64,000 nt of DNA from Patescibacteria group bacterium (GCA_040384765.1 JAZKIQ010000004.1:63434-127433), one strand, 5' to 3'. Shown: positions 3,542 through 61,186, counted from the stretch's first letter. A program made the numbers and translations. The notes: a model not told the origin generated them from the sequence alone.

Positions 3542-3820
3542 CTAGGACATCTTTACTGCATCCTTGAGCGCTTTTGCTGCACGAAACTTCGGTGCTTTCA
3601 TCGAAGGCACCTGCACGGTCTCGCCGGTGCGTGGATTGCGCGCCGTGCGAGCTGCTCGGGTCTTTACCGAGAAGATACCAAGACCTGCTATCGAAACCTC
3701 ATCTCCTTTCTTGAGGCCATCTACGATAGCCCAGAGCATCGTGTCTACTGCCTCTTCAGCGGCAACTTTTGTCCCGCCAATCTTCGAGTGAACCGCATCG
3801 ATAATATTTTGCTTGTTCAT
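3542..3820 (-). CDS. hup: Nucleoid-associated DNA-binding protein HU
   Basis: 92-aa ORF MNKQNIIDAV...GLGIFSVKTRAARTARNPRTGETVQVPS, the typical HU/IHF fold signature. Confidence 0.9.
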   Translation of the reverse strand: MNKQNIIDAVHSKIGGTKVAAEEAVDTMLWAIVDGLKKGDEVSIAGLGIFSVKTRAARTARNPRTGETVQVPSMKAPKFRAAKALKDAVKMS

Positions 3821-3875
3821 ATGGTTGTTTGCCTCCTTGCATAGCGAGGAGGTTATTACGACCTTTAGCTAGGTA

Positions 3876-4053
3876 GTGTTCGCAATCTCGCGTCCTGTCA
3901 AAACGCCGGAGTTCCGAGCGAAAAACGAGATGGAGTTCGAGCCGTATAGTATACGGCTCGGGCGAAGCGCAGTTTTGCAGCCGGAACTCCGGCGTTTTGG
4001 CGGACGAGCGATACTTTCAGCCCATCCCTTCGCGGCGAGATTGTGAACACTGC
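3876..4053. other. Nested perfect inverted repeats (candidate structured RNA or element scar)
   Basis: Outer 18-bp arms 3876-3893/4036-4053 (one G-U). Inner 18-bp arms caaaacgccggagttccg 3899-3916 and cggaactccggcgttttg 3981-3998. Internal hairpin gagccgtatagtatacggctc. Confidence 0.35.
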
Positions 4054-4218
4054 CAAGGCTAGTATACCGCAGCCCAAAATCAAGGGCAATCGAGAAATGG
4101 CTTAGTGAAGCCATGCAACTCGGGTAAGAGTTCAGAGTTTAGAGATCAGAGATTAGTCACTCAACAATGGCGAGCAAGAGTTTTGCTGACTGAGCTCTGA
4201 ACTCTGTAAACTGAACTC

Positions 4219-6997: not shown

Positions 6998-7043
6998 AGA
7001 GTTGCTCAGCAGAGCAAAGGCCCGATCGGGCGACGAGCGGCAA

Positions 7044-7064
7044 GACAAAAGCCCCGCTGGGGGC
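7044..7064 (-). terminator. Terminator downstream of clpP
   Basis: Minus strand reads gcccccagcggggc followed by ttttgtctt. Confidence 0.6.
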
Positions 7065-7102
7065 ATTTAGTCTGGTTTTGCAAAAGAAGTACCGAGGGCC
7101 TT

Positions 7103-7702
7103 CTATTTCTTCGCCTCCGCTTTCGGCTTCAAGATCTCATCCACAATGCCGTATTTCTTGGCCTCATCTGCGCCCATGAAAAAGTCGCGATCGGTATCTT
7201 TTTCAAGTACAGAGAGAGCCTTGCCGGTATGTTTTGCGAGAATAGCGTTCAACTGAGCCTTGAGCTTGAGGATCTGGCGAGCAGTGATCTCGATATCCGA
7301 TGCCTGGCCTTCAGCGCCACCAAGCGGCTGGTGGATCATCACTTCCGAGTTGGGGAGGACGAAGCGCTTGCCCTTTTCGCCCGCGGCAAGAAGGATCGAT
7401 GCCATAGAGGCTGCAATACCCACGCAGATTGTCGATACTTTTGGCTTGATATGCTGCATTGTGTCGTAGATCGCAAGACCTGCGTACACAGAGCCACCCC
7501 CTGAGTTGATATAGAGGGAGATATCTTTGTTAGAGTCTTTCGATTCAAGATACAGAAACTGAGCGATGATCGTGTTGGCGACATTTTCATCGATCGGCCC
7601 TGCGAGCATGATGATGCGCTCTTCGAGGAGGCGAGAGTAGATGTCGTATGCGCGCTCGCCAAACTGCGACTTCTCGATGACGGTGGGGATTAAGATTGAC
7701 AT
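7103..7702 (-). CDS. clpP: ATP-dependent Clp protease proteolytic subunit
   Basis: [39 protein letters not shown]...; canonical ClpP. Confidence 0.96.
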
Positions 7703-7801
7703 GGAAGAAATGACTTAATGACTAATGACGAATGACCAATGAATGCGGGTGTCCGATTTTCTAGACATTAGACATTAGGCATTAGTCATTTGCAAATTGA
7801 T
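7703..7801 (-). promoter_or_regulatory. Palindromic array of heptad direct repeats (4x GTCATTn facing 4x nAATGAC) in the tig-clpP intergenic region, touching the clpP start codon
   Basis: Coding strand: ATGACTAATGCCTAATGTCTAATGTCTA...cATTGGTCATTCGTCATTAGTCATTAAGTCATTTcttccATG. Confidence 0.5.
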
Positions 7802-8797
7802 TTACTTCTGCGACTCAAGAAACTGCAACACCTTCTCATTCAAAAGCATCCCTTCTACATAGAGCTGCGCGCGCTCCGGATCAGCACCCTGGTACTGTGC
7901 CATCACTTCAGCGGTCTCCTTTTCTACCTCCTCAGGAGATGCCTCAAGCTTCTCCTTTTTCCCGATCTGTTTGAGGATTAGCTCAAAGCGTACACGCTTT
8001 TCTGCTGCCTCGCGCATCTCTCGGCGGATATCCTCCTCGGTTTTTCCTGTGGACTCTACATATCCTGGAAAGGTGCCTCCTGCACGCACGATGTCTGCTT
8101 TCATCTGGCTTACCATGCGCTCGAGCTCGGTATCTACGAGTATTGCGGGAAGCTCTGAGGTGCTCTTCTCAAGAATCCCTTCGAGGATTGCCGTGCGCTT
8201 CTTGTCGCGGAGCTTGATCTCTTTCTCAAGACTAATGTTTTTTCCAATCTTTTCTTTAAAATCAGCCACACTTTCAAACTTGCCGAGCGTTTTTACAAAT
8301 TCGTCGGTAAGCTCGGGGGCGGCTTCACCCTCTTTGGTTCGCAGCTTCTTTATCTCTGCAACTACATCCTCGACCTCTTTCTCGGAGGCGAGGGCAGTCT
8401 CGGTGTTCGCTGCAAGGCTCTCTTTGGCGATCTTTTTGTAGTCGGGGAGTACCACCTCGGGCATGACGGCTGTCTTGATGGTAAAGAGAACAGGCGCTCC
8501 CTTTTCGAGCTTTGTTATCGATATTTCAGGCCGGCCGAGTGCCTCGATCCCATGCTCTTCGATAATCTCCGGGTACGCCCGCTCGAGGGCTCGGTGAGCC
8601 ATCTCCTCGAGAAGAGCCCCCTCACCAAATTTTTGAATAAGTACTTTCTCGGGGGCCTCGCCTGGGCGGAATCCATCGATATGTATAGATGCTGCAATGT
8701 GGCGTACTGCCTTTCCGCGCTGTTTTTCAAAAAGCTCGGGGGCGATTTCGCCGGCGATAGTGACTGTTGAGTTCTCTCCTTTAGTGAGCGTGGTCAT
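7802..8797 (-). CDS. tig: Trigger factor (short form, 331 aa; start at second Met MTTLTKGE)
   Basis: Ribosome-binding N-domain GFRPGEAPEKVL and C-terminal chaperone arm. The track's upstream ATG lies inside a TATAAT box (8826..8821). Confidence 0.85.
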   Translation of the reverse strand: MTTLTKGENSTVTIAGEIAPELFEKQRGKAVRHIAASIHIDGFRPGEAPEKVLIQKFGEGALLEEMAHRALERAYPEIIEEHGIEALGRPEISITKLEKGAPVLFTIKTAVMPEVVLPDYKKIAKESLAANTETALASEKEVEDVVAEIKKLRTKEGEAAPELTDEFVKTLGKFESVADFKEKIGKNISLEKEIKLRDKKRTAILEGILEKSTSELPAILVDTELERMVSQMKADIVRAGGTFPGYVESTGKTEEDIRREMREAAEKRVRFELILKQIGKKEKLEASPEEVEKETAEVMAQYQGADPERAQLYVEGMLLNEKVLQFLESQK

Positions 8798-8880
8798 GAT
8801 AAAAAAATATAAGAGTCTCCAATTATACAACTAAAAAGGCCTCTTGAAAAGCCCTGCACACTTTTTCTCTAGACCGGCGA

Positions 8881-9144
8881 CTAGTTCTTCGTACTGCTTG
8901 CTGTCTCTTCGAGCGCGTTTAGCTTGGCCTCAATATCAGACAGATCGAGCTCTCCGTAGTCGCTTTTGAGGGTTCCTACATCATCTGTGCCTGTGGCATG
9001 AGGGCGGTCGCTCTCGGCTGAGATAAGAGGGGACGCCGCTTCGCGCTTTTTGATGCTTGCATACGCACCGATTCCAAGGAGCACAATAAGTGCTCCAACG
9101 AGGAAAAGCGGTCGAGATTGAATGAACGATGAGCGAGGACGCAT
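8881..9144 (-). CDS. Small membrane-anchored hypothetical protein (87 aa)
   Basis: N-terminal TM RPLFLVGALIVLLGIGAYA, acidic tail. Confidence 0.45.
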   Translation of the reverse strand: MRPRSSFIQSRPLFLVGALIVLLGIGAYASIKKREAASPLISAESDRPHATGTDDVGTLKSDYGELDLSDIEAKLNALEETASSTKN

Positions 9145-12123: not shown

Positions 12124-12238
12124 GCCTCTTCTGGATGTGTCTTTTTGGAACACGGATATTTTTCTGGTGAAAAATTCCTCGAGCTCGCTTCGGCCAAGCT
12201 CGCTAGTTTCCAAAAAGACACATCCAGAAGAGGTCTTG
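12121..12238. repeat. Family-1 element copy 1: conserved ~75-nt core clamped by a locus-specific 17-21 bp inverted repeat
   Basis: Core TTTTTGGAACACGGATATTTTTCTGGTGAAAAATTCCTCGAGCTCGCTTCGGCCAAGCTCGCTAGTTTCCAAAAA. Arms cctcttctggatgtgtc / gacacatccagaagagg. Confidence 0.8.
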
Positions 12239-13502: not shown

Positions 13503-14612
13503 ATGAATATCAGTCAAGAATCACAAGGAGTATCTCTCGGAGCAAAGCTGCTCGGTGTGCTGATGGTGCTCGTTGTCGGTTTTGGTATCGCGCGCGCCGA
13601 CTGGACAGCACCTGGCTCGACTCCACCGGGATGCACCGCTGGCACGGGGCCATGTGAGGCACCGATCAACGTAAGTAGTACCAACCAAACAAAAAGTGGC
13701 GGCCTTACGGTGAACGGAAATTTCATTCCACCGCGCCTTGCGACAGCCTCTCTCCCGACGTGCAATACTGCAAACAGGGGCTCAACTGTTTTTGATACGA
13801 CGGCAGGTAAGCTGAAAAATTGTGACGGTACTGTGTGGAAAGTGCTTGCCTCAGACGACCAGATTATCCCTCCCGTCCCATTTCCTTCTGGTGCAGTTAT
13901 GTCGTTTGATATAGCAAATACGGGATCACCGAATGATTGCCCTGCGGGTTGGACGGAGTTTACTGCCGCTGAAGGCCGATCTGTGGTGGGGCTTCAGTAC
14001 GCTGGAACGCTCCGTGGTACAGCAGGCACACCTCTGACAGATAGACAGGATAGACCTACTGGCTCGCATACCCACTACCAAGCTGTTCAGGATCACCCTA
14101 TTTATGGGTATGGGCATACGCATCCTGTTGCTGCAAGCTTTAGCGGTAGCGGTACCGGTAGCACTGAATTGCCTAGACATCGGCATTGGCTGGGTACTAA
14201 TCAATACGGTGGTGACGTCGGCGCCACAAGCCAATTTCATTTTGGAGGGAATGCTAATCAGCAGGGGTATACCTATGTAGGGTTCCAGGGGAGCGGTACG
14301 AATCTCGCCCCCTGGAGCGGCTACCAGGTTGGGTACGAGGGTGGCGTCAACGATTACTACTACGGCCAAAACCCATACGTAACCATAACGGTACCGATAT
14401 CAGGTTCAGTCTCGGGAACCGCAAGTAAAGCGCATGAAAATATTCAGGTGTACAATCCTATCCAGGGTGGCTGGACCTATACATACGATGGTGCTCAGTA
14501 CGCCCATCTCTACGAAGGGGGTTACGACACCAATGCTCCTACTCAGGCGGGTGCAAATATTGCGGGTACGAATGCTCCCTACATCCAGTTGTTGATGTGT
14601 AAAAAGAGTTAA
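13503..14612 (+). CDS. Membrane-anchored G/Y-rich surface protein, possible adhesin
   Basis: N-terminal TM LLGVLMVLVVGFGIA; CPAGWTEF and NCDGTVWKVL motifs reminiscent of tail-collar/adhesin folds (weak). Confidence 0.5.
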   Translation: MNISQESQGVSLGAKLLGVLMVLVVGFGIARADWTAPGSTPPGCTAGTGPCEAPINVSSTNQTKSGGLTVNGNFIPPRLATASLPTCNTANRGSTVFDTTAGKLKNCDGTVWKVLASDDQIIPPVPFPSGAVMSFDIANTGSPNDCPAGWTEFTAAEGRSVVGLQYAGTLRGTAGTPLTDRQDRPTGSHTHYQAVQDHPIYGYGHTHPVAASFSGSGTGSTELPRHRHWLGTNQYGGDVGATSQFHFGGNANQQGYTYVGFQGSGTNLAPWSGYQVGYEGGVNDYYYGQNPYVTITVPISGSVSGTASKAHENIQVYNPIQGGWTYTYDGAQYAHLYEGGYDTNAPTQAGANIAGTNAPYIQLLMCKKS

Positions 14613-16915: not shown

Positions 16916-17009
16916 CTGTTCATGAAGCATAAAACATGAATCACGAATCATTCTTCAAAAAATCCCCTCAGCATGTTCGGCATGTTTTATGTTTTATGTT
17001 TCATGTTCT
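16916..17009 (+). promoter_or_regulatory. AT-rich palindromic array of CATGTT/AACATG hexamer repeats between pilB and pilC, ending at the pilC ATG
   Basis: ttcatgaagcataaaacatgaatcacgaatcattc ... catgttcggcatgttttatgttttatgtttcatgttctATG. Confidence 0.45.
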
Positions 17010-18227
17010 ATGAAGTTCTCGTACACTGCCAAAACAAAAGCCGGAGATACCATAACCGGCATTGAAGAGGCTGCCGACAAGTTTGACCTTGCCAGGCGGC
17101 TTCGAACGGTGGGGTCTCTCGTTGTGCGGGCCGAGGAGGCAAAGGGAAATAAAGGAGTTTCACTTTCGCTCTCGTTCGGTACGCTTTTTAAGCGTGTGAA
17201 GCTCGAGGAGAAGATTTTTTTCACCACCAACCTCTCAGCCATGCTCTCTGCGGGCCTTTCGCTTGCGCGCGCTCTTGATGTGCTTACCCGGCAGACAAAA
17301 AACCCGGTGCTGCTTGCGGTCATCGAGGCTACTGCCCACGATATCGACAAGGGATCAAGTCTTTCGGAAGCGCTTGGTCGCCACCCAGAGGTGTTTCCAG
17401 AAGTGTTCACTGCCATGGTGGCGGCAGGAGAGGGCTCGGGAAAACTGCCCGACTCTCTGCGGCTGATCGGCGAGCAGCTTTCAAAGACGTACGCCCTTCG
17501 CAAAAAAATCCGCGGTGCGCTTATCTATCCGGCGATTATCGTGACCGCGATGGTCCTCGTGGGTATCCTGATGCTCACCTTTATCGTCCCAACTCTCTCT
17601 GCCACGTTTGAGGAGCTCCATATTACGCTGCCGCTCTCTACTCGCCTCATTATCGGACTTTCGCATTTTGTGGAGCGAAACGGCATATATCTTTTGCTTG
17701 CTCTTCCTTTCATCGGATACGCTTTTCTCAGAATGAGCCGAAGCGAGAAGGGAAAGCGATCGGTAGATACGTTTCTGATCCATGCACCACTCGTCTCGCC
17801 GATTGTGCGCAATATGAACGCTGCCATGACCAGCCGGACACTCTCCTCGCTTGTTTCGTCTGGTGTGGAGATCGTGCAGGCGCTCGACATTACGAAAAAA
17901 GTAATTCAAAACTCGTACTATCGAGCCGTGCTTACGAACGCCCAGAAGTCGGTCGAAAAAGGTGGCACGCTCGCCTCGGCGTTTCTCGCCGAGGCGAAGC
18001 TGTACCCAACACTGCTCGGCGAGATGATCGATGTAGGGGAGGAGACCGGAGCACTTTCAGATATGCTTTTGCGCGTGGCGGTGTTTTATGAAGGAGAGGT
18101 GGATACAGTGACCAAGGATCTTTCTACGGTGATCGAGCCTATATTGATGGTGTTTGTTGGTGCCGCAGTGCTCTTTTTTGCGATCTCGATGATTCAGCCT
18201 ATTTACAACATTAGCGCCGGCATATAG
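17010..18227 (+). CDS. pilC: Type IV pilus inner-membrane platform protein PilC (GspF family); start at MKFSYTAK
   Basis: Two GspF repeats and three TM segments. The track ORF begins 21 nt upstream, inside the repeat array. Confidence 0.9.
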   Translation: MKFSYTAKTKAGDTITGIEEAADKFDLARRLRTVGSLVVRAEEAKGNKGVSLSLSFGTLFKRVKLEEKIFFTTNLSAMLSAGLSLARALDVLTRQTKNPVLLAVIEATAHDIDKGSSLSEALGRHPEVFPEVFTAMVAAGEGSGKLPDSLRLIGEQLSKTYALRKKIRGALIYPAIIVTAMVLVGILMLTFIVPTLSATFEELHITLPLSTRLIIGLSHFVERNGIYLLLALPFIGYAFLRMSRSEKGKRSVDTFLIHAPLVSPIVRNMNAAMTSRTLSSLVSSGVEIVQALDITKKVIQNSYYRAVLTNAQKSVEKGGTLASAFLAEAKLYPTLLGEMIDVGEETGALSDMLLRVAVFYEGEVDTVTKDLSTVIEPILMVFVGAAVLFFAISMIQPIYNISAGI

Positions 18228-19720: not shown

Positions 19721-20878
19721 ATGCCTAAAGCCTTGAACCTAAAACCTAAAACTTATCGTGAAGGGCAAATAGTCCTCCTTTCCGTTTTCTTCATGGTGCT
19801 CATGTCGCTCGGGCTTCTTCTCGGGGGTACGGTCCCGCTCGTGCGAGAAACCCAAACGGTGAGAGATATCTCGCACTCTCGCGACGCATACTACTGGGCA
19901 GAAGGTGCTGTGGAGGACGTGGTGTATCGGATAAAAAAAGGGTACTCAGTGGGGAGTAGCGTCTCTGTGCCTATCGATGGGTCGAATGTGGTGGTGACGG
20001 TGACAGATGTTCCTGGCTCACGCATCGTGAGCGCTCTCGGAGACAAAAATAGCGATCGCAGGCGCGTGCAGGCGACGGTGGTGGCGGGTACTGGTATTTC
20101 GTTTAGCTACGGCATTCAGGTGGGTTCTCAGGGTATTTTCCTTGATAGCAATGCGGTCGTGAATGGGAGTATTTATACAAACGGAAGTGCAGAGGGAGAG
20201 AACGGATCAGCCGTGACGGGCTCGCTCTTTGCTGTGGGGAGCATCAGCTCACCCGACCCAGAGGTCACTGGCCAGGTGCAATCGGGAGCCGAGCCTCTCG
20301 CGCTTCCGGAAGTAGATATTGACTCGTGGAAGAGTGCCGCCAATGTGAACAACAACCCTATCGTGGGAGATGTTACCTATTCGGGTGCTGGCAACAGTCT
20401 CGGACCGCGCAAGGTGGTGGGAAATATGACCCTCAGTAATGGCGCCACCCTTACCGTTACAGGGCCACTTCATATTACGGGCAATCTTATCCTCGATAAC
20501 AACTCTACGCTCAAGCTCGACTCTTCTTTTGGCTCTGCGGGTACTGCGATCATTGTCGACGGAGAGGTCACGCTGTATAACAATGCGCTCGTGCTCGGTA
20601 CGGGCGCTACGCCAAAAGGGTATCTCCTTATCCTCTCGACCTCTTCGTCAGCAAACGCGATAAAAATCGACAACAATGGAAACGCGCAGGCCTATTTTTA
20701 TGCCTACAACGGCACGATCGTACTCGATAACAATGCGGGTGCCATGGCCATCGTGGGGCAGCGTGTCGTTCTTAATAATGGTGCGGAGGTGAATTATGAA
20801 ATCGGCCTGGCACACCCTCAGTTTTCAAGCGGGCCAGGTGGCACCTTTGAGGTGAAAGGTTGGAAGGAGACCGAATAA
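19721..20878 (+). CDS. PilX-like pilus-associated protein with predicted beta-helix (N/G/T-rich repeats)
   Basis: N-terminal hydrophobic IVLLSVFFMVLMSLGLLL; repetitive xNGxxL(T/V)V segments. Confidence 0.55.
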   Translation: MPKALNLKPKTYREGQIVLLSVFFMVLMSLGLLLGGTVPLVRETQTVRDISHSRDAYYWAEGAVEDVVYRIKKGYSVGSSVSVPIDGSNVVVTVTDVPGSRIVSALGDKNSDRRRVQATVVAGTGISFSYGIQVGSQGIFLDSNAVVNGSIYTNGSAEGENGSAVTGSLFAVGSISSPDPEVTGQVQSGAEPLALPEVDIDSWKSAANVNNNPIVGDVTYSGAGNSLGPRKVVGNMTLSNGATLTVTGPLHITGNLILDNNSTLKLDSSFGSAGTAIIVDGEVTLYNNALVLGTGATPKGYLLILSTSSSANAIKIDNNGNAQAYFYAYNGTIVLDNNAGAMAIVGQRVVLNNGAEVNYEIGLAHPQFSSGPGGTFEVKGWKETE

Positions 20879-20887
20879 GGTAGGCTC

Positions 20888-20981
20888 AAACCTGCAAAAG
20901 CTATTTGCCGTCGCTGTCTGGCGCTGCTGCGCCAGCGCTGACTCTCGCGCCGTCGCGCTGCTAGACACGGCAAATAGCTTT
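20888..20981. repeat. 24-bp perfect inverted repeat enclosing a 46-nt GC-rich loop (large terminator-like hairpin after the pilus cluster)
   Basis: aaacctgcaaaagctatttgccgt ... acggcaaatagcttttgcaggttt followed by ttcgc. Confidence 0.6.
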
Positions 20982-21060
20982 TGCAGGTTTTCGCTGGGGC
21001 GGCAGAGAATACGCACCCTTGATTCTCTCGGCGGGCTTACGCAACCTGTGATAAAGTGGA

Positions 21061-22891: not shown

Positions 22892-23241
22892 AGAGCTGCT
22901 CGAATTTTCTCTACGTTGTCTTTAAGGTCGGCCATATTCTTTTCGGTATTTGGCCACACCCACACATGGGCGTGTGCTACATCTTCGCCAAACACCTGGC
23001 TTCGGATGAGTTCTGCGCCGAAGGCCTCTTTTTGGGCTAGCGCGATCTTCCTCACGACTTCAAAATAGGGGCCGATCTCAGGCACATCCCACACCCATCG
23101 GTAATGCTGTTTGGGGATTATCTGGGTGTGCCCCGTACCGCGCGGATGAATATCAAGAAAGGCGAGGAAAAGGTTGTCCTCGTACACCACCAGAGCAGGG
23201 ATCTCTTTTCGTACAATTTTGCAAAAAATGCAGTCAGTCAT
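22888..23241 (-). CDS. HIT-family (histidine triad) hydrolase
   Basis: CIFCKI...HAHVWVWP triad; 117 aa. Confidence 0.88.
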   Translation of the reverse strand: MTDCIFCKIVRKEIPALVVYEDNLFLAFLDIHPRGTGHTQIIPKQHYRWVWDVPEIGPYFEVVRKIALAQKEAFGAELIRSQVFGEDVAHAHVWVWPNTEKNMADLKDNVEKIRAAL

Positions 23242-25978: not shown

Positions 25979-26088
25979 ATAAAACAGTATCTTTTTTGGA
26001 ACACGGATATTTTTCTGGTGAAAAATTCCTCGAGCTCGCTTCGATCAAGCTCGCTAGTTTCCAAAAAAGATACTGTTTTATTTATTTG
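25972..26088. repeat. Family-1 element copy 2; the left arm contains the rnhA stop codon
   Basis: 20-bp perfect arms caaataaataaaacagtatc / gatactgttttatttatttg around the conserved core (nearly identical to copy 1). Confidence 0.8.
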
Positions 26089-29900: not shown

Positions 29901-29912
29901 TTAGATTTTCTT

Positions 29913-30010
29913 ATTGCCTAGTGAAGTGAGAGTCGCGAAAGTGTACTCACTTTCATGACCGAACGAATGACGGCAAAAAAGTGAGCACACTTTATGCTGC
30001 GACTGGCTCT
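29913..30010 (+). repeat. Family-2 element copy A (5' module); its 3' part encodes the last codons and stop of rpmB on the opposite strand
   Basis: ATTGCCTAGTGAAGTGAGAGTCGCGAAAGTGTACTCACTTTCATGACCGAACGAATGACGGCAAAAAAGTGAG. Confidence 0.75.
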
Positions 30011-30875: not shown

Positions 30876-31001
30876 AGCACGTTTTAAAACCGCAGATTCG
30901 CGAAGCCGAGGGAGAAAAATGCGAGGTGTACACAAGGTACAGTGAGTGTTTTTCGACCGATGGCGACAAAGAAGGTGGGGTTTTAAAACGTGCTTCAGGA
31001 G
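30874..31001. repeat. 18-bp perfect inverted repeat enclosing a 92-nt loop, overlapping the protease stop codon
   Basis: gaagcacgttttaaaacc ... ggttttaaaacgtgcttc. Confidence 0.6.
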
Positions 31002-31137
31002 GTATACTATCCTCGGCTTGTAAAAACAGGGGGAAGAAAGGGGTGATCTCAGGTGCCTTTTTCAAAAAGGGGAGCGGCTGGAAAGAAGCTATTCGGACTT
31101 TCCACGGCAGATACAGAACAGAGTACTGAAAAAAAGG

Positions 31138-32820: not shown

Positions 32821-32931
32821 GGCGCTCGCCACAGTTCCTTTTTGGAACACGGATAATTTTTTGCTAAAAATTTCCTCGAGCTCGCGCCGGTCGCGCTCCC
32901 TAGTTTCCAAAAAGGAACTGTGGCGAGCGCC
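32821..32931. repeat. Family-1 element copy 3, inside the str operon between rpsG and fusA
   Basis: 18-bp perfect arms ggcgctcgccacagttcc / ggaactgtggcgagcgcc; core variant ...GGATAATTTTTTGCTAAAAATTTCC... Confidence 0.8.
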
Positions 32932-35142: not shown

Positions 35143-35170
35143 AAAGCCCCGGCAGATGCCGGGGCTTTTC
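35143..35170 (+). terminator. Rho-independent terminator after fusA
   Basis: aaaagccccggcagatgccggggcttttc. Confidence 0.7.
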
Positions 35171-35251
35171 TGATGTGGACACTGAAGGCCTATTCTAAAA
35201 GAAAATCCGCGGCGGCCCGAAGGGTCGCCGCGGATTGCGTGGAGAAGTCGA

Positions 35252-37214: not shown

Positions 37215-37416
37215 CTTTGAGCCTGCGATCCATGACTCCGCGCGCCTACCCGGTGCGCGGTTCTCTTTTGTATAAGTGGCATAATCCACTTTTTGCCGTC
37301 ACTCGTTCGGGTATGAAAAGTGCTCTTTTCATGCCTCTCACTTCGCTAGGCAATAAAAAATGAAAGCCGTCATCTCCATCTTGCAAGGCAAGGGGAGCAT
37401 GACGGCTTCGAAGGTC

Positions 37417-60831: not shown

Positions 60832-61041
60832 CGGGACGTGGTGTAACGGTAACATTCACGAGATGGGGTCGAATCTTTTGTCGGGCTATAGTGTAACGGT
60901 AACATTCACGATTCGGGTTCGTGAGACTCTGGGTTCAAATCCCAGTAGCCCGACAAAAGATTTGACGGGAATGCCCCAAGCGCATTCCCCGGATTTTCAG
61001 CAGAAAATGTGAGACTCCGGGTTCAAATCCCGGCGTCCCGA
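60832..61041 (+). tRNA. Split or nested tRNA-Pro(UGG)-like gene: 5' half 60832-60868, 3' half 61007-61041, interrupted by 138 nt that contain the tRNA-Pro(CGG) gene
   Basis: Acceptor CGGGACG pairs perfectly with CGTCCCG; T arm CCGGG-TTCAAAT-CCCGG (compensatory relative to the inner tRNA); anticodon loop GATGGGG. Confidence 0.4.
60882..60953 (+). tRNA. tRNA-Pro (anticodon CGG)
   Basis: Hand-folded: acceptor CGGGCTA/TAGCCCG; D stem GTGT/ACAT; anticodon stem CACGA/TCGTG; loop TTCGGGT; T arm CTGGG-TTCAAAT-CCCAG. Confidence 0.8.
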
Positions 61042-61159
61042 CTGAGCAAGGCGAAGGAGCGGAGGAGAAAATGCCCTGCGGCATTTTTGTTCGGTATTTG
61101 AAGGACTTTTCAATGTCGAGCAATGCGAGACGTGAAAAGTACCCGCGACGGTAGTCGAA

Positions 61160-61186
61160 AATCCCGGCGTCCCGACATTTTGACGG
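61160..61186 (+). repeat. Third copy of a tRNA-Pro 3' end (aaatcccggcgtcccgac) plus duplicated downstream sequence attttgacgg
   Basis: Exact 18-nt match to 61025-61042; following attttgacgg matches 60959-60970 (after the inner tRNA). Confidence 0.6.

Follow-up and report, generated by a model that had tools for sequence, protein, structure and literature searches.

Among cyanobacteria, the heptanucleotide STRR repeats of Calothrix and Anabaena (STRR1-3) use a few fixed unit sequences per genome. Hairpins between co-transcribed genes, such as the RNase III sites of phage T7 early mRNA and the REP elements of E. coli operons, serve in processing or as stabilisers, and hairpins of this type adjust how strongly the flanking cistrons are expressed relative to each other and can hide or expose a downstream start. 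The omega repressor of inc18 plasmids, a ribbon-helix-helix protein, has heptad iterons of the unit WATCACW that overlap promoters. CtsR, which to our knowledge is known from Firmicutes only, has an operator box upstream of clp genes.

Heptanucleotides have been reported as the commonest long simple-sequence repeats of prokaryotes, an excess attributed to slippage of the polymerase (Mrazek 2007, as cited in PMC4679880 and PMC4692102). Rehm et al. 2015 (PMC4692102) described the heptamers GGGAATC in Xanthomonas and GGGGAYT in Nostoc, with about four units preferred. These repeats are intergenic, lie within 50 bp of gene ends, are commoner between aligned ORFs and depleted between divergent ones, and carry their G-rich strand in antisense upstream of ORFs (PMC4692102). 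Each Xanthomonas genome holds 70-75 inverted heptamer pairs, close relatives vary strongly, and the authors discuss G-quadruplex formation for the repeats of both genera (PMC4692102). At starts without a Shine-Dalgarno (SD) motif, MacGregor 2015 (PMC4679880) found direct repeats of TAACTGA in marine Beggiatoaceae, cyanobacteria and Bacteroidetes, with S1, Csp or CsrA proposed as binding factors. Our literature search found no description of such heptad elements in CPR bacteria.

Here we analysed a 64-kb stretch of DNA (64,000 nucleotides, referred to as the window), whose Tig relatives belong to the Patescibacteria (CPR), within the Parcubacteria/Paceibacteria. The genes tig and clpP lie on the minus strand, separated by a 99-nt spacer (7703-7801). 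The first 16 residues of ClpP match those of two relatives (L162 and L163). An exact-protein look-up returned a single other copy of the locus (L001); this second contig is 100% identical at the locus and carries the Pfam families CLP_protease and Trigger_N/C. The coordinates of all features are collected in the table.

Table. Features of the tig-clpP locus and other repeat elements in the window
Feature	Coordinates	Strand	Description
clpP (PF00574)	7103-7702	-	start codon 7700-7702
tig (Trigger_N/Trigger_C)	7802-8797	-	stop codon TAA 7802-7804
5' (tig-proximal) arm	7762-7791	-	AA and four ATGnCTA units; Tandem Repeats Finder, inverted repeat, fold
Period-7 array, 5' arm	7762-7790		Tandem Repeats Finder, 4.1 copies, 90% match
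Apical region	7744-7761	-	non-repetitive, predicted 6-bp mini-stem; fold
3' (clpP-proximal) arm	7708-7743	-	five units; Tandem Repeats Finder, inverted repeat, fold
Period-7 array, 3' arm	7709-7742		Tandem Repeats Finder, 4.7 copies, 88% match
CTTCC linker	7703-7707	-	unpaired, without SD motif; fold
Predicted stem	7708-7791		base 10 nt past tig stop, end 5 nt short of clpP ATG
Promoter match for tig	8850-8822		sigma-70-like
Terminator after clpP	7051-7064		canonical, GC-rich
rny hairpin	4126-4218	-	inverted heptads AGTTCAG / CTGAACT, stem about 32 bp
rny stop codon	4219-4221		
hup (HU)	3551-3820	-	98% identical to L164 protein
pilB stop codon	16913-16915		
pilB-pilC hairpin	16920-17012	+	inverted arrays CATnAAn / (C/T)ATGTTT; pilC ATG (17010) inside last unit
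Single CCTAAAA array	19724-19752	+	four copies, no inverted partner, directly after ATG 19721
Non-periodic palindromes	20890-21010; 30885-31010; 35147-35245		stems 25-35 bp
75-nt core	12142-12216; 25993-26067; 32839-32913		three copies
70-nt intergenic repeat	29912-29981; 44764-44833		copies 96% identical; inverted copy near 37300-37400
tRNA-Pro(CGG)	60882-60954		inner tRNA
Split tRNA-Pro-like gene	60832-61177 (region)		5' half 60832-60871, 3' half about 61009-61042; further 3'-half-like copy at about 61140-61177

Read on the coding strand, the sequence begins TAA-ATCAATTTGC-AA ATGACTA ATGCCTA ATGTCTA ATGTCTA-GAAAATCGGACACCCGCA, and GAAAATCGGACACCCGCA is followed by TTCATTG GTCATTC GTCATTA GTCATTAA GTCATTT-CTTCC-ATG. 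The tig-proximal units can equally be read in the registers AATGnCT or CTAATGn. The original prediction had described four phased GTCATTn repeats that end at the clpP ATG. The array is real and Tandem Repeats Finder confirms its period of 7, but it stops 5 nt before the ATG, at the CTTCC linker, its fourth unit (GTCATTAA) is 8 nt long, and it opens with a fifth, degenerate unit (TTCATTG). The four inverted nAATGnC repeats described upstream were also recovered as an array by Tandem Repeats Finder, and the two arrays are mutually inverted, with 25-nt arms that are 84% complementary.

When folded as sense-strand RNA, the spacer gave 27 arm pairs in an imperfect stem and the 6-bp apical stem (dG -28.7 kcal/mol, z = -4.47); none of 200 shuffles reached this stability, which bears out the imperfect hairpin of about 30 bp that had been proposed. 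The predicted stem buries the clpP leader from -6 to -33, making a translational or other post-transcriptional role plausible. The hairpin had also been proposed to occlude the translation start; the leader is indeed buried, but the AUG and the 5 nt preceding it are unpaired, and there is no SD that the stem could pair, as an RNA thermometer would. G-runs are absent from both arms, so the arms lack the four tracts of at least three G that define G-quadruplex-forming repeats. No other GTCATT array occurs in the 64-kb window, unlike palindromes of the REP or MITE type, which have many copies, and an Rfam scan of the whole window returned one tRNA and no family in the spacer.

A consensus scan of positions 7000-9000 predicted neither a sigma-70-like promoter nor an intrinsic terminator in the spacer. 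Because a sigma-70-like promoter match precedes tig and a canonical terminator follows clpP, with neither between them, tig and clpP are probably co-transcribed and the spacer is probably intra-operonic.

Syntenic relatives of the locus were obtained by protein search followed by contig look-ups. In the closest of them (L162, Tig 85% identical), the spacer is 157 nt long, with 5' units of CTAATTn and five proximal TTAGnAA units that abut the ATG (z = -3.4), and it keeps inner remnants of window-type units (AATGACC and CATTAGG). The next relative (L163, Tig 74%) has a hairpin of approximately 8-nt units, AAAGTTnn / AACTTTnn (z = -4.6). Relatives with Tig identities of 57-67% have no repeat hairpin in the tig-clpP spacer. 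Their spacers are 18 nt (L164, Tig 67%) or 28 nt (L167, 59%) long with no hairpin, or hold a GC-rich stem (L166, 63%), a small non-periodic stem (L168, 57%) or a long palindromic element (L169, 57%). The hairpin is thus kept in the two closest relatives, but its units differ there and the further relatives are without it.

Placing the arms in register, we found that AATGnCT:AGnCATT in the window corresponds to AATTnCT:AGnAATT in L162, a compensatory change from G:C to U:A in every copy of both arms. At the level of sequence, this comparison demonstrates that complementarity between the arms has been maintained over time. Among the sequences compared, the structure persists in the nearest clade with its unit sequence replaced. 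Since the relatives with Tig at 57-67% identity do without the repeat hairpin, the element is dispensable there or is swapped for other hairpins. Burial of the start region is not kept in the nearest clade either: about three proximal units are unpaired in the L162 fold, and the main stem of L163 ends about 35 nt before the AUG. A post-transcriptional role of the kind first proposed is therefore plausible from the buried leader in the window, but occlusion of the start region is not a conserved property.

The same architecture occurs elsewhere in the window. We counted six period-7 arrays of at least three copies, where a dinucleotide shuffle yields 0.1 on average; the top score for this period was 36 in 40 shuffles, compared with 44-48 observed, and 7 was the only enriched tandem period. 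Four different units are in use (AATGACT, AGAGTTC, ATGTTTT and CCTAAAA). Besides the clpP element, inverted heptads form hairpins at rny and between pilB and pilC, and one array stands alone after an ATG. The rny hairpin sets in at the stop codon of rny, with hup some 300 nt further downstream; it is a 3'-end element that adjoins no start codon, and the idea that all three hairpins of the window abut a start codon was therefore wrong. A small ORF called after rny (3869-4114, minus strand) was rejected as spurious, the real next gene being hup. The approximately 300 nt that precede hup are structured non-coding DNA with a promoter-like box, GGTATACT, and a long hairpin.

The window also contains further long, near-perfect intergenic palindromes that are not periodic, and long inverted repeats are tolerated or favoured by this genome generally. 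A 75-nt core (TTTTTGGAACACGGATATTTTTCTGGTGAAAAATTCCTCGAGCTCGC...AGTTTCCAAAAA) occurs three times, and flanks that are specific to the locus and fully complementary lengthen each copy by 15-20 nt. The resulting hairpins are very long, with dG of -75 to -85 kcal/mol for whole spacers. The core has no Rfam match and occurs also in L088, after rny, and in L169, in the tig-clpP spacer, both being sites where other genomes have terminators or heptad hairpins. Two copies of a 70-nt intergenic repeat starting TATTGCCTAGTGAAGTGAG, which likewise has no Rfam match, are accompanied by an inverted copy. Finally, the tRNA-Pro(CGG) gene is apparently nested in a second, split tRNA-Pro-like gene, the insert being flanked by the inverted repeat GTCGAATCTTTTGTCGGGC / GCCCGACAAAAGATTTGAC; ARAGORN and Rfam call the inner tRNA alone in this region.

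For lineage statistics, we counted arrays of at least 2.8 copies in 1.75 Mb of DNA from related Paceibacteria (CPR), made up of 146 non-redundant loci. The best Tig relatives from a genome collection (49% identical in the best species-representative genome) and from metagenome scans (46%) were used for these statistics only. Period 7 was dominant, with 101 arrays compared with 4-59 for each other period from 4 to 12, and the runners-up, periods 9 (59 arrays) and 6 (49 arrays), were mostly coding. Although intergenic DNA makes up only about 13% of the sequence (about 87% being coding), 65 of the 101 period-7 arrays are intergenic. An inverted partner (at least 15/18, within 130 nt) accompanied 31 of the 101 and a direct partner only 2, whereas each other period had 0-5 arrays with an inverted partner. 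The consensus units of neighbouring arrays were reverse-complementary (at least 6/7) in 8 of 13 pairs, compared with 3.9% of random pairs. Copy number ranged from 3 to 5, with a mode of 4.

Clusters favoured spacers between genes of the same direction, with 36 co-directional, 6 convergent and 5 divergent spacers against a baseline of 725, 235 and 278. Many arrays stop 0-12 nt short of an ATG. In those that lie no more than 50 nt upstream of a start, the sense strand is poor in G (24 vs 4, p = 0.0003). A tendency to lie nearer a start than a stop was not significant (21 vs 14, sign test, p = 0.31). Arrays recur at clpP, ppa, pilin genes and the 3' end of rny in many lineages. At clpP, the unit is GTCATTn in the window, CTAGTCA in L011 and L013, ACTACTT in L051, CTACTAA in L059, TTAAAAA with an inverted AATTTTT array in L062, and TCATnAA in L072. 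Orthologues of ppa and of another conserved gene likewise carry differing units between lineages. With the same architecture built from unrelated units at rny, at pilB-pilC and at many unrelated genes of the lineage, the suggestion that the element is specific to clpP does not hold.

Several observations concern individual arrays. In 23 of 26 start-proximal arrays the units contain TAA or TAG, compared with 14.1 expected from composition; the excess is equal on both strands and reflects a YTAR core (CTAG, CTAA, TTAG, TTAA). We rejected the idea that three or more units serve to close all three frames with stops before the start, because 14 such arrays were observed and 12.8 expected. Most relatives carry a canonical terminator of A-tract, stem and T-tract where rny stops, and a heptad hairpin takes its place in the window, L046 and L168. 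In L168, a self-complementary array of six AGCTTnn units lies immediately 3' of the rny stop (14398-14437), and an inverted heptad pair, AGCTGTA / TTGCAGC, lies upstream of nusA (7690-7772). At Yonathbacteria-like loci, the pilB hairpin begins right after an extended -10 box, and a close relative (L019) has two units only and no hairpin. Heptad hairpins also occur where paralogous type IV pilin genes encode the prepilin leader, in one such locus (L014, 1600-2900) and in L033 and L052. Their 5'-arm units, GGAGAAT, hold an SD-like GGAG and an ATG in all three frames, their 3' arms encode the part of the leader directly before the G|FTLVE cleavage motif, and the pilin and pilB hairpins of one genome share a unit core. 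Slippage in these leaders could possibly shift the reading frame and lead to phase variation.

The absence of a visible SD motif before clpP had been pointed out in the original prediction, correctly, yet it is a property of the whole genome. SD-like tetramers occur between -18 and -5 of 7.7% of starts in the window and 9% across the loci, compared with a background of 14.6%, and with SD motifs depleted genome-wide clpP is no exception in lacking one. A -10-like TAnnnT box stands 6-7 nt before the start of many first genes, including the starts at 23241(-), 23272(+), 42126(+), 50666(+) and 51284(+) in the window, and the same pattern is found upstream of pilB in about 20 related loci. The position of these boxes suggests leaderless mRNAs, on which the organism probably relies heavily. 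A relay of mini-ORFs through the UAAUG motifs of the 5' arm, noticed by eye, was discarded because its ATG is lost in the CTAATT units of L162.

Taken together, we conclude that the tig-clpP element is a member of a lineage-wide class of intergenic heptameric simple-sequence repeats, often in inverted pairs. The class shows tandem 7-mers above chance, intergenic position, preference for spacers between aligned ORFs, inverted pairs and variation among relatives; a single dominant unit per genome was not found, the window alone having four. Like the heptamers of Xanthomonas and Nostoc, the arrays comprise about four units, are intergenic, lie at gene ends and between aligned ORFs, often occur as inverted pairs that could form stem-loops, vary fast, and carry the G-rich strand in antisense upstream of starts. 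Those heptamers, however, use one G-rich unit genome-wide that can form a G-quadruplex, whereas units here belong to their locus and those of clpP (AATGnCT / GTCATTn) cannot form one. The STRR repeats are also intergenic tandem heptanucleotides, but they have fixed units and occur in a different taxon. The geometry and placement are thus known, and what is new are the locus-specific units that are not G-rich, the co-evolving arms and the occurrence in a CPR lineage.

What the element does is a separate question, on which we hold graded views. We give nearly an even chance to the model that it acts as an intercistronic mRNA stem-loop which bounds the tig message and masks the clpP leader. In this model, replication slippage in steps of 7-nt units would have created each arm and would keep reshaping it, an origin suggested by the literature on heptanucleotide repeats together with the rapid turnover of units seen here. 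On the tig-clpP transcript, both arrays would fold into the imperfect 27-bp stem that fills the spacer. The stem may bound and protect the 3' side of an abundant tig message, or attenuate read-through, and it would bury the clpP leader in an organism that does not use SD pairing. Synthesis of ClpP would thereby be set below that of Tig and would depend on opening of the stem, either by ribosomes arriving from tig or through processing of the RNase III or RNase Y type. Against the model, the base of the stem lies 10 nt past the tig stop, so that a terminating ribosome would barely open it, burial of the start region is not conserved in L162 and L163, and the relatives with Tig at 57-67% identity do without the repeat hairpin.

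By analogy, such an element would resemble the T7 and REP hairpins, in which a long imperfect stem-loop likewise fills the spacer between co-transcribed genes. Those hairpins are non-periodic, and REP elements repeat a consensus throughout the genome, whereas the clpP element is periodic and its unit is unique in the window. In the proposed role, which we infer from position and folding, the genes would share a transcript, the stem would form in living cells, and mRNA stability or translation would be affected. When 16 hairpins were folded on both strands, mean energies were -29.8 kcal/mol for the sense and -32.3 kcal/mol for the antisense strand (p = 0.25), with 32 and 54 G-U pairs, respectively. 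With no folding advantage for the sense strand, these data do not demonstrate selection for the folded mRNA, and the arms may be complementary for reasons acting on the DNA or through mutation alone.

The main rival to the mRNA stem-loop is a self-renewing mutational by-product without function, which we consider a serious though rather unlikely account. Slippage would build and resize the arrays, intrastrand template switching (quasi-palindrome correction) would keep the arms complementary, and the hairpin would be tolerated by looping itself out. Complete unit turnover between close relatives and loss of the element in others fit such a process, as do the separate unit at each locus, the lack of a folding advantage on the sense strand, the many other long near-perfect palindromes between genes of this genome, and the slippage origin ascribed to heptanucleotide repeats in general. 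A process without function accounts less well for the persistence of a repeat hairpin in the tig-clpP spacer down to 74% Tig identity despite replaced units, for the recurrence of arrays at the same genes in many lineages, or for the strong G-poor bias of the sense strand beside start codons. In L014, moreover, either arm repeats its own unit with 100% fidelity, but from one arm to the other the units differ at two positions, which argues against frequent templating of one arm by the other.

It is unlikely, in our view, that the start-proximal array is itself the functional part. By analogy with the TAACTGA repeats (PMC4679880), it could be an SD-independent landing pad for ribosomes or a site for a putative single-strand RNA-binding factor (S1, Csp-like or CsrA-like), with the distal array as a titrating anti-element. 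Most single arrays do stop 0-12 nt short of an ATG and have little G on the sense strand, SD motifs are depleted, and clpP, ppa and other orthologues carry arrays of different units in at least six lineages each. The TAACTGA repeats, in 2-6 copies, also stand a few nucleotides upstream of SD-less starts of housekeeping genes, where a post-transcriptional role was proposed. They have a single genome-wide unit, however, and only 1 of 170 is inverted, whereas units here are varied and about one third of the arrays have an inverted partner. With units varying from gene to gene, no single sequence-specific factor could recognise every one of them; the clpP-proximal array in the window is not G-poor (G about equal to C), and the rny hairpin adjoins no start codon.

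Improbable, too, is a reading in which repeat hairpins that bridge stop and start are a dedicated device for internal cistrons in SD-less, largely leaderless CPR bacteria. The stem could bring stop and start within about 15 nt, so that post-termination ribosomes would cross its base and re-initiate, in a kind of bacterial shunting. Alternatively, it could guide an endonuclease to cut so that the downstream AUG comes to lie at a leaderless-like 5' end. With a period of 7 nt, slippage would be able to tune the length of the stem quickly.

We regard as quite improbable a DNA-level operator, at which a protein of the omega or CtsR kind would read direct and inverted contiguous 7-bp units and control clpP transcription. 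The four direct and four inverted contiguous units do resemble omega operators, and pilus genes within one genome share a unit core (GAAT or GACAAnT; L014, L033 and L052). Omega iterons, however, have the unit WATCACW, which is missing here, and overlap promoters. The earlier comparison with CtsR-type operators drew on the heptad direct repeats. Direct heptads before a clp gene and a GTCA core are indeed common to the two, but a CtsR box has two heptads with period 10 and overlaps a promoter, whereas the spacer has 4 + 4 contiguous units of period 7, no predicted promoter and no sequence conservation. When up to 3 mismatches were allowed, the CtsR box (RGTCAAA-NAN-RGTCAAA) was still absent from the spacer, and elsewhere in the window 5 matches compare with 4.7 expected. 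With the same tolerance, the window has no CIRCE element of the HrcA system (TTAGCACTC-N9-GAGTGCTAA), and ten window proteins that we scanned included no other clp or chaperone gene. A novel repressor site specific to clp genes fares no better, as the GTCATT array is unique in the window, its units are not conserved at Tig identities of 85% and 74%, and each locus of the same genome has a different unit. With no CtsR or CIRCE match, a unique array and no promoter in the spacer, a sequence-specific operator is not supported.

Still less probable is a terminator or attenuator of tig transcription without a U-tract and with no role in clpP translation. The stem starts shortly past the tig stop, heptad hairpins at the rny stop sit where relatives have canonical terminators, and hairpins follow tig in L070 and L166. 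However, no U-tract follows the stem, the scan called no terminator in the spacer, the genome uses canonical terminators of GC stem and T-run elsewhere, and with no clpP promoter downstream full termination would silence clpP. Least probable is a phase-variable contingency locus in which repeat number switches clpP on and off, for although a 7-nt unit is not a multiple of 3, the arrays are slippage-prone and those of L014 lie inside prepilin leader-coding sequence, the arrays at clpP lie outside the ORF and any predicted promoter, clpP is a housekeeping gene, and the one other copy of the locus shows no polymorphism.

Intergenic heptamers are the commonest long simple-sequence repeats of prokaryotes, and for the best-studied cases either G-quadruplexes or a single dedicated binding factor served as the explanation. 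Here, an unrelated lineage with reduced genomes shows the same architecture with locus-specific units that form no G-quadruplex and change in both arms together. Because the units differ by locus, form no G-quadruplex and change jointly, we argue that the general constraint is arm pairing together with 7-nt slippage, and not the unit sequence or a quadruplex. For annotation, such arrays should not be read as gene-specific operators. The element offers a handle on how operon-internal genes may be expressed in bacteria whose initiation is not led by SD pairing.
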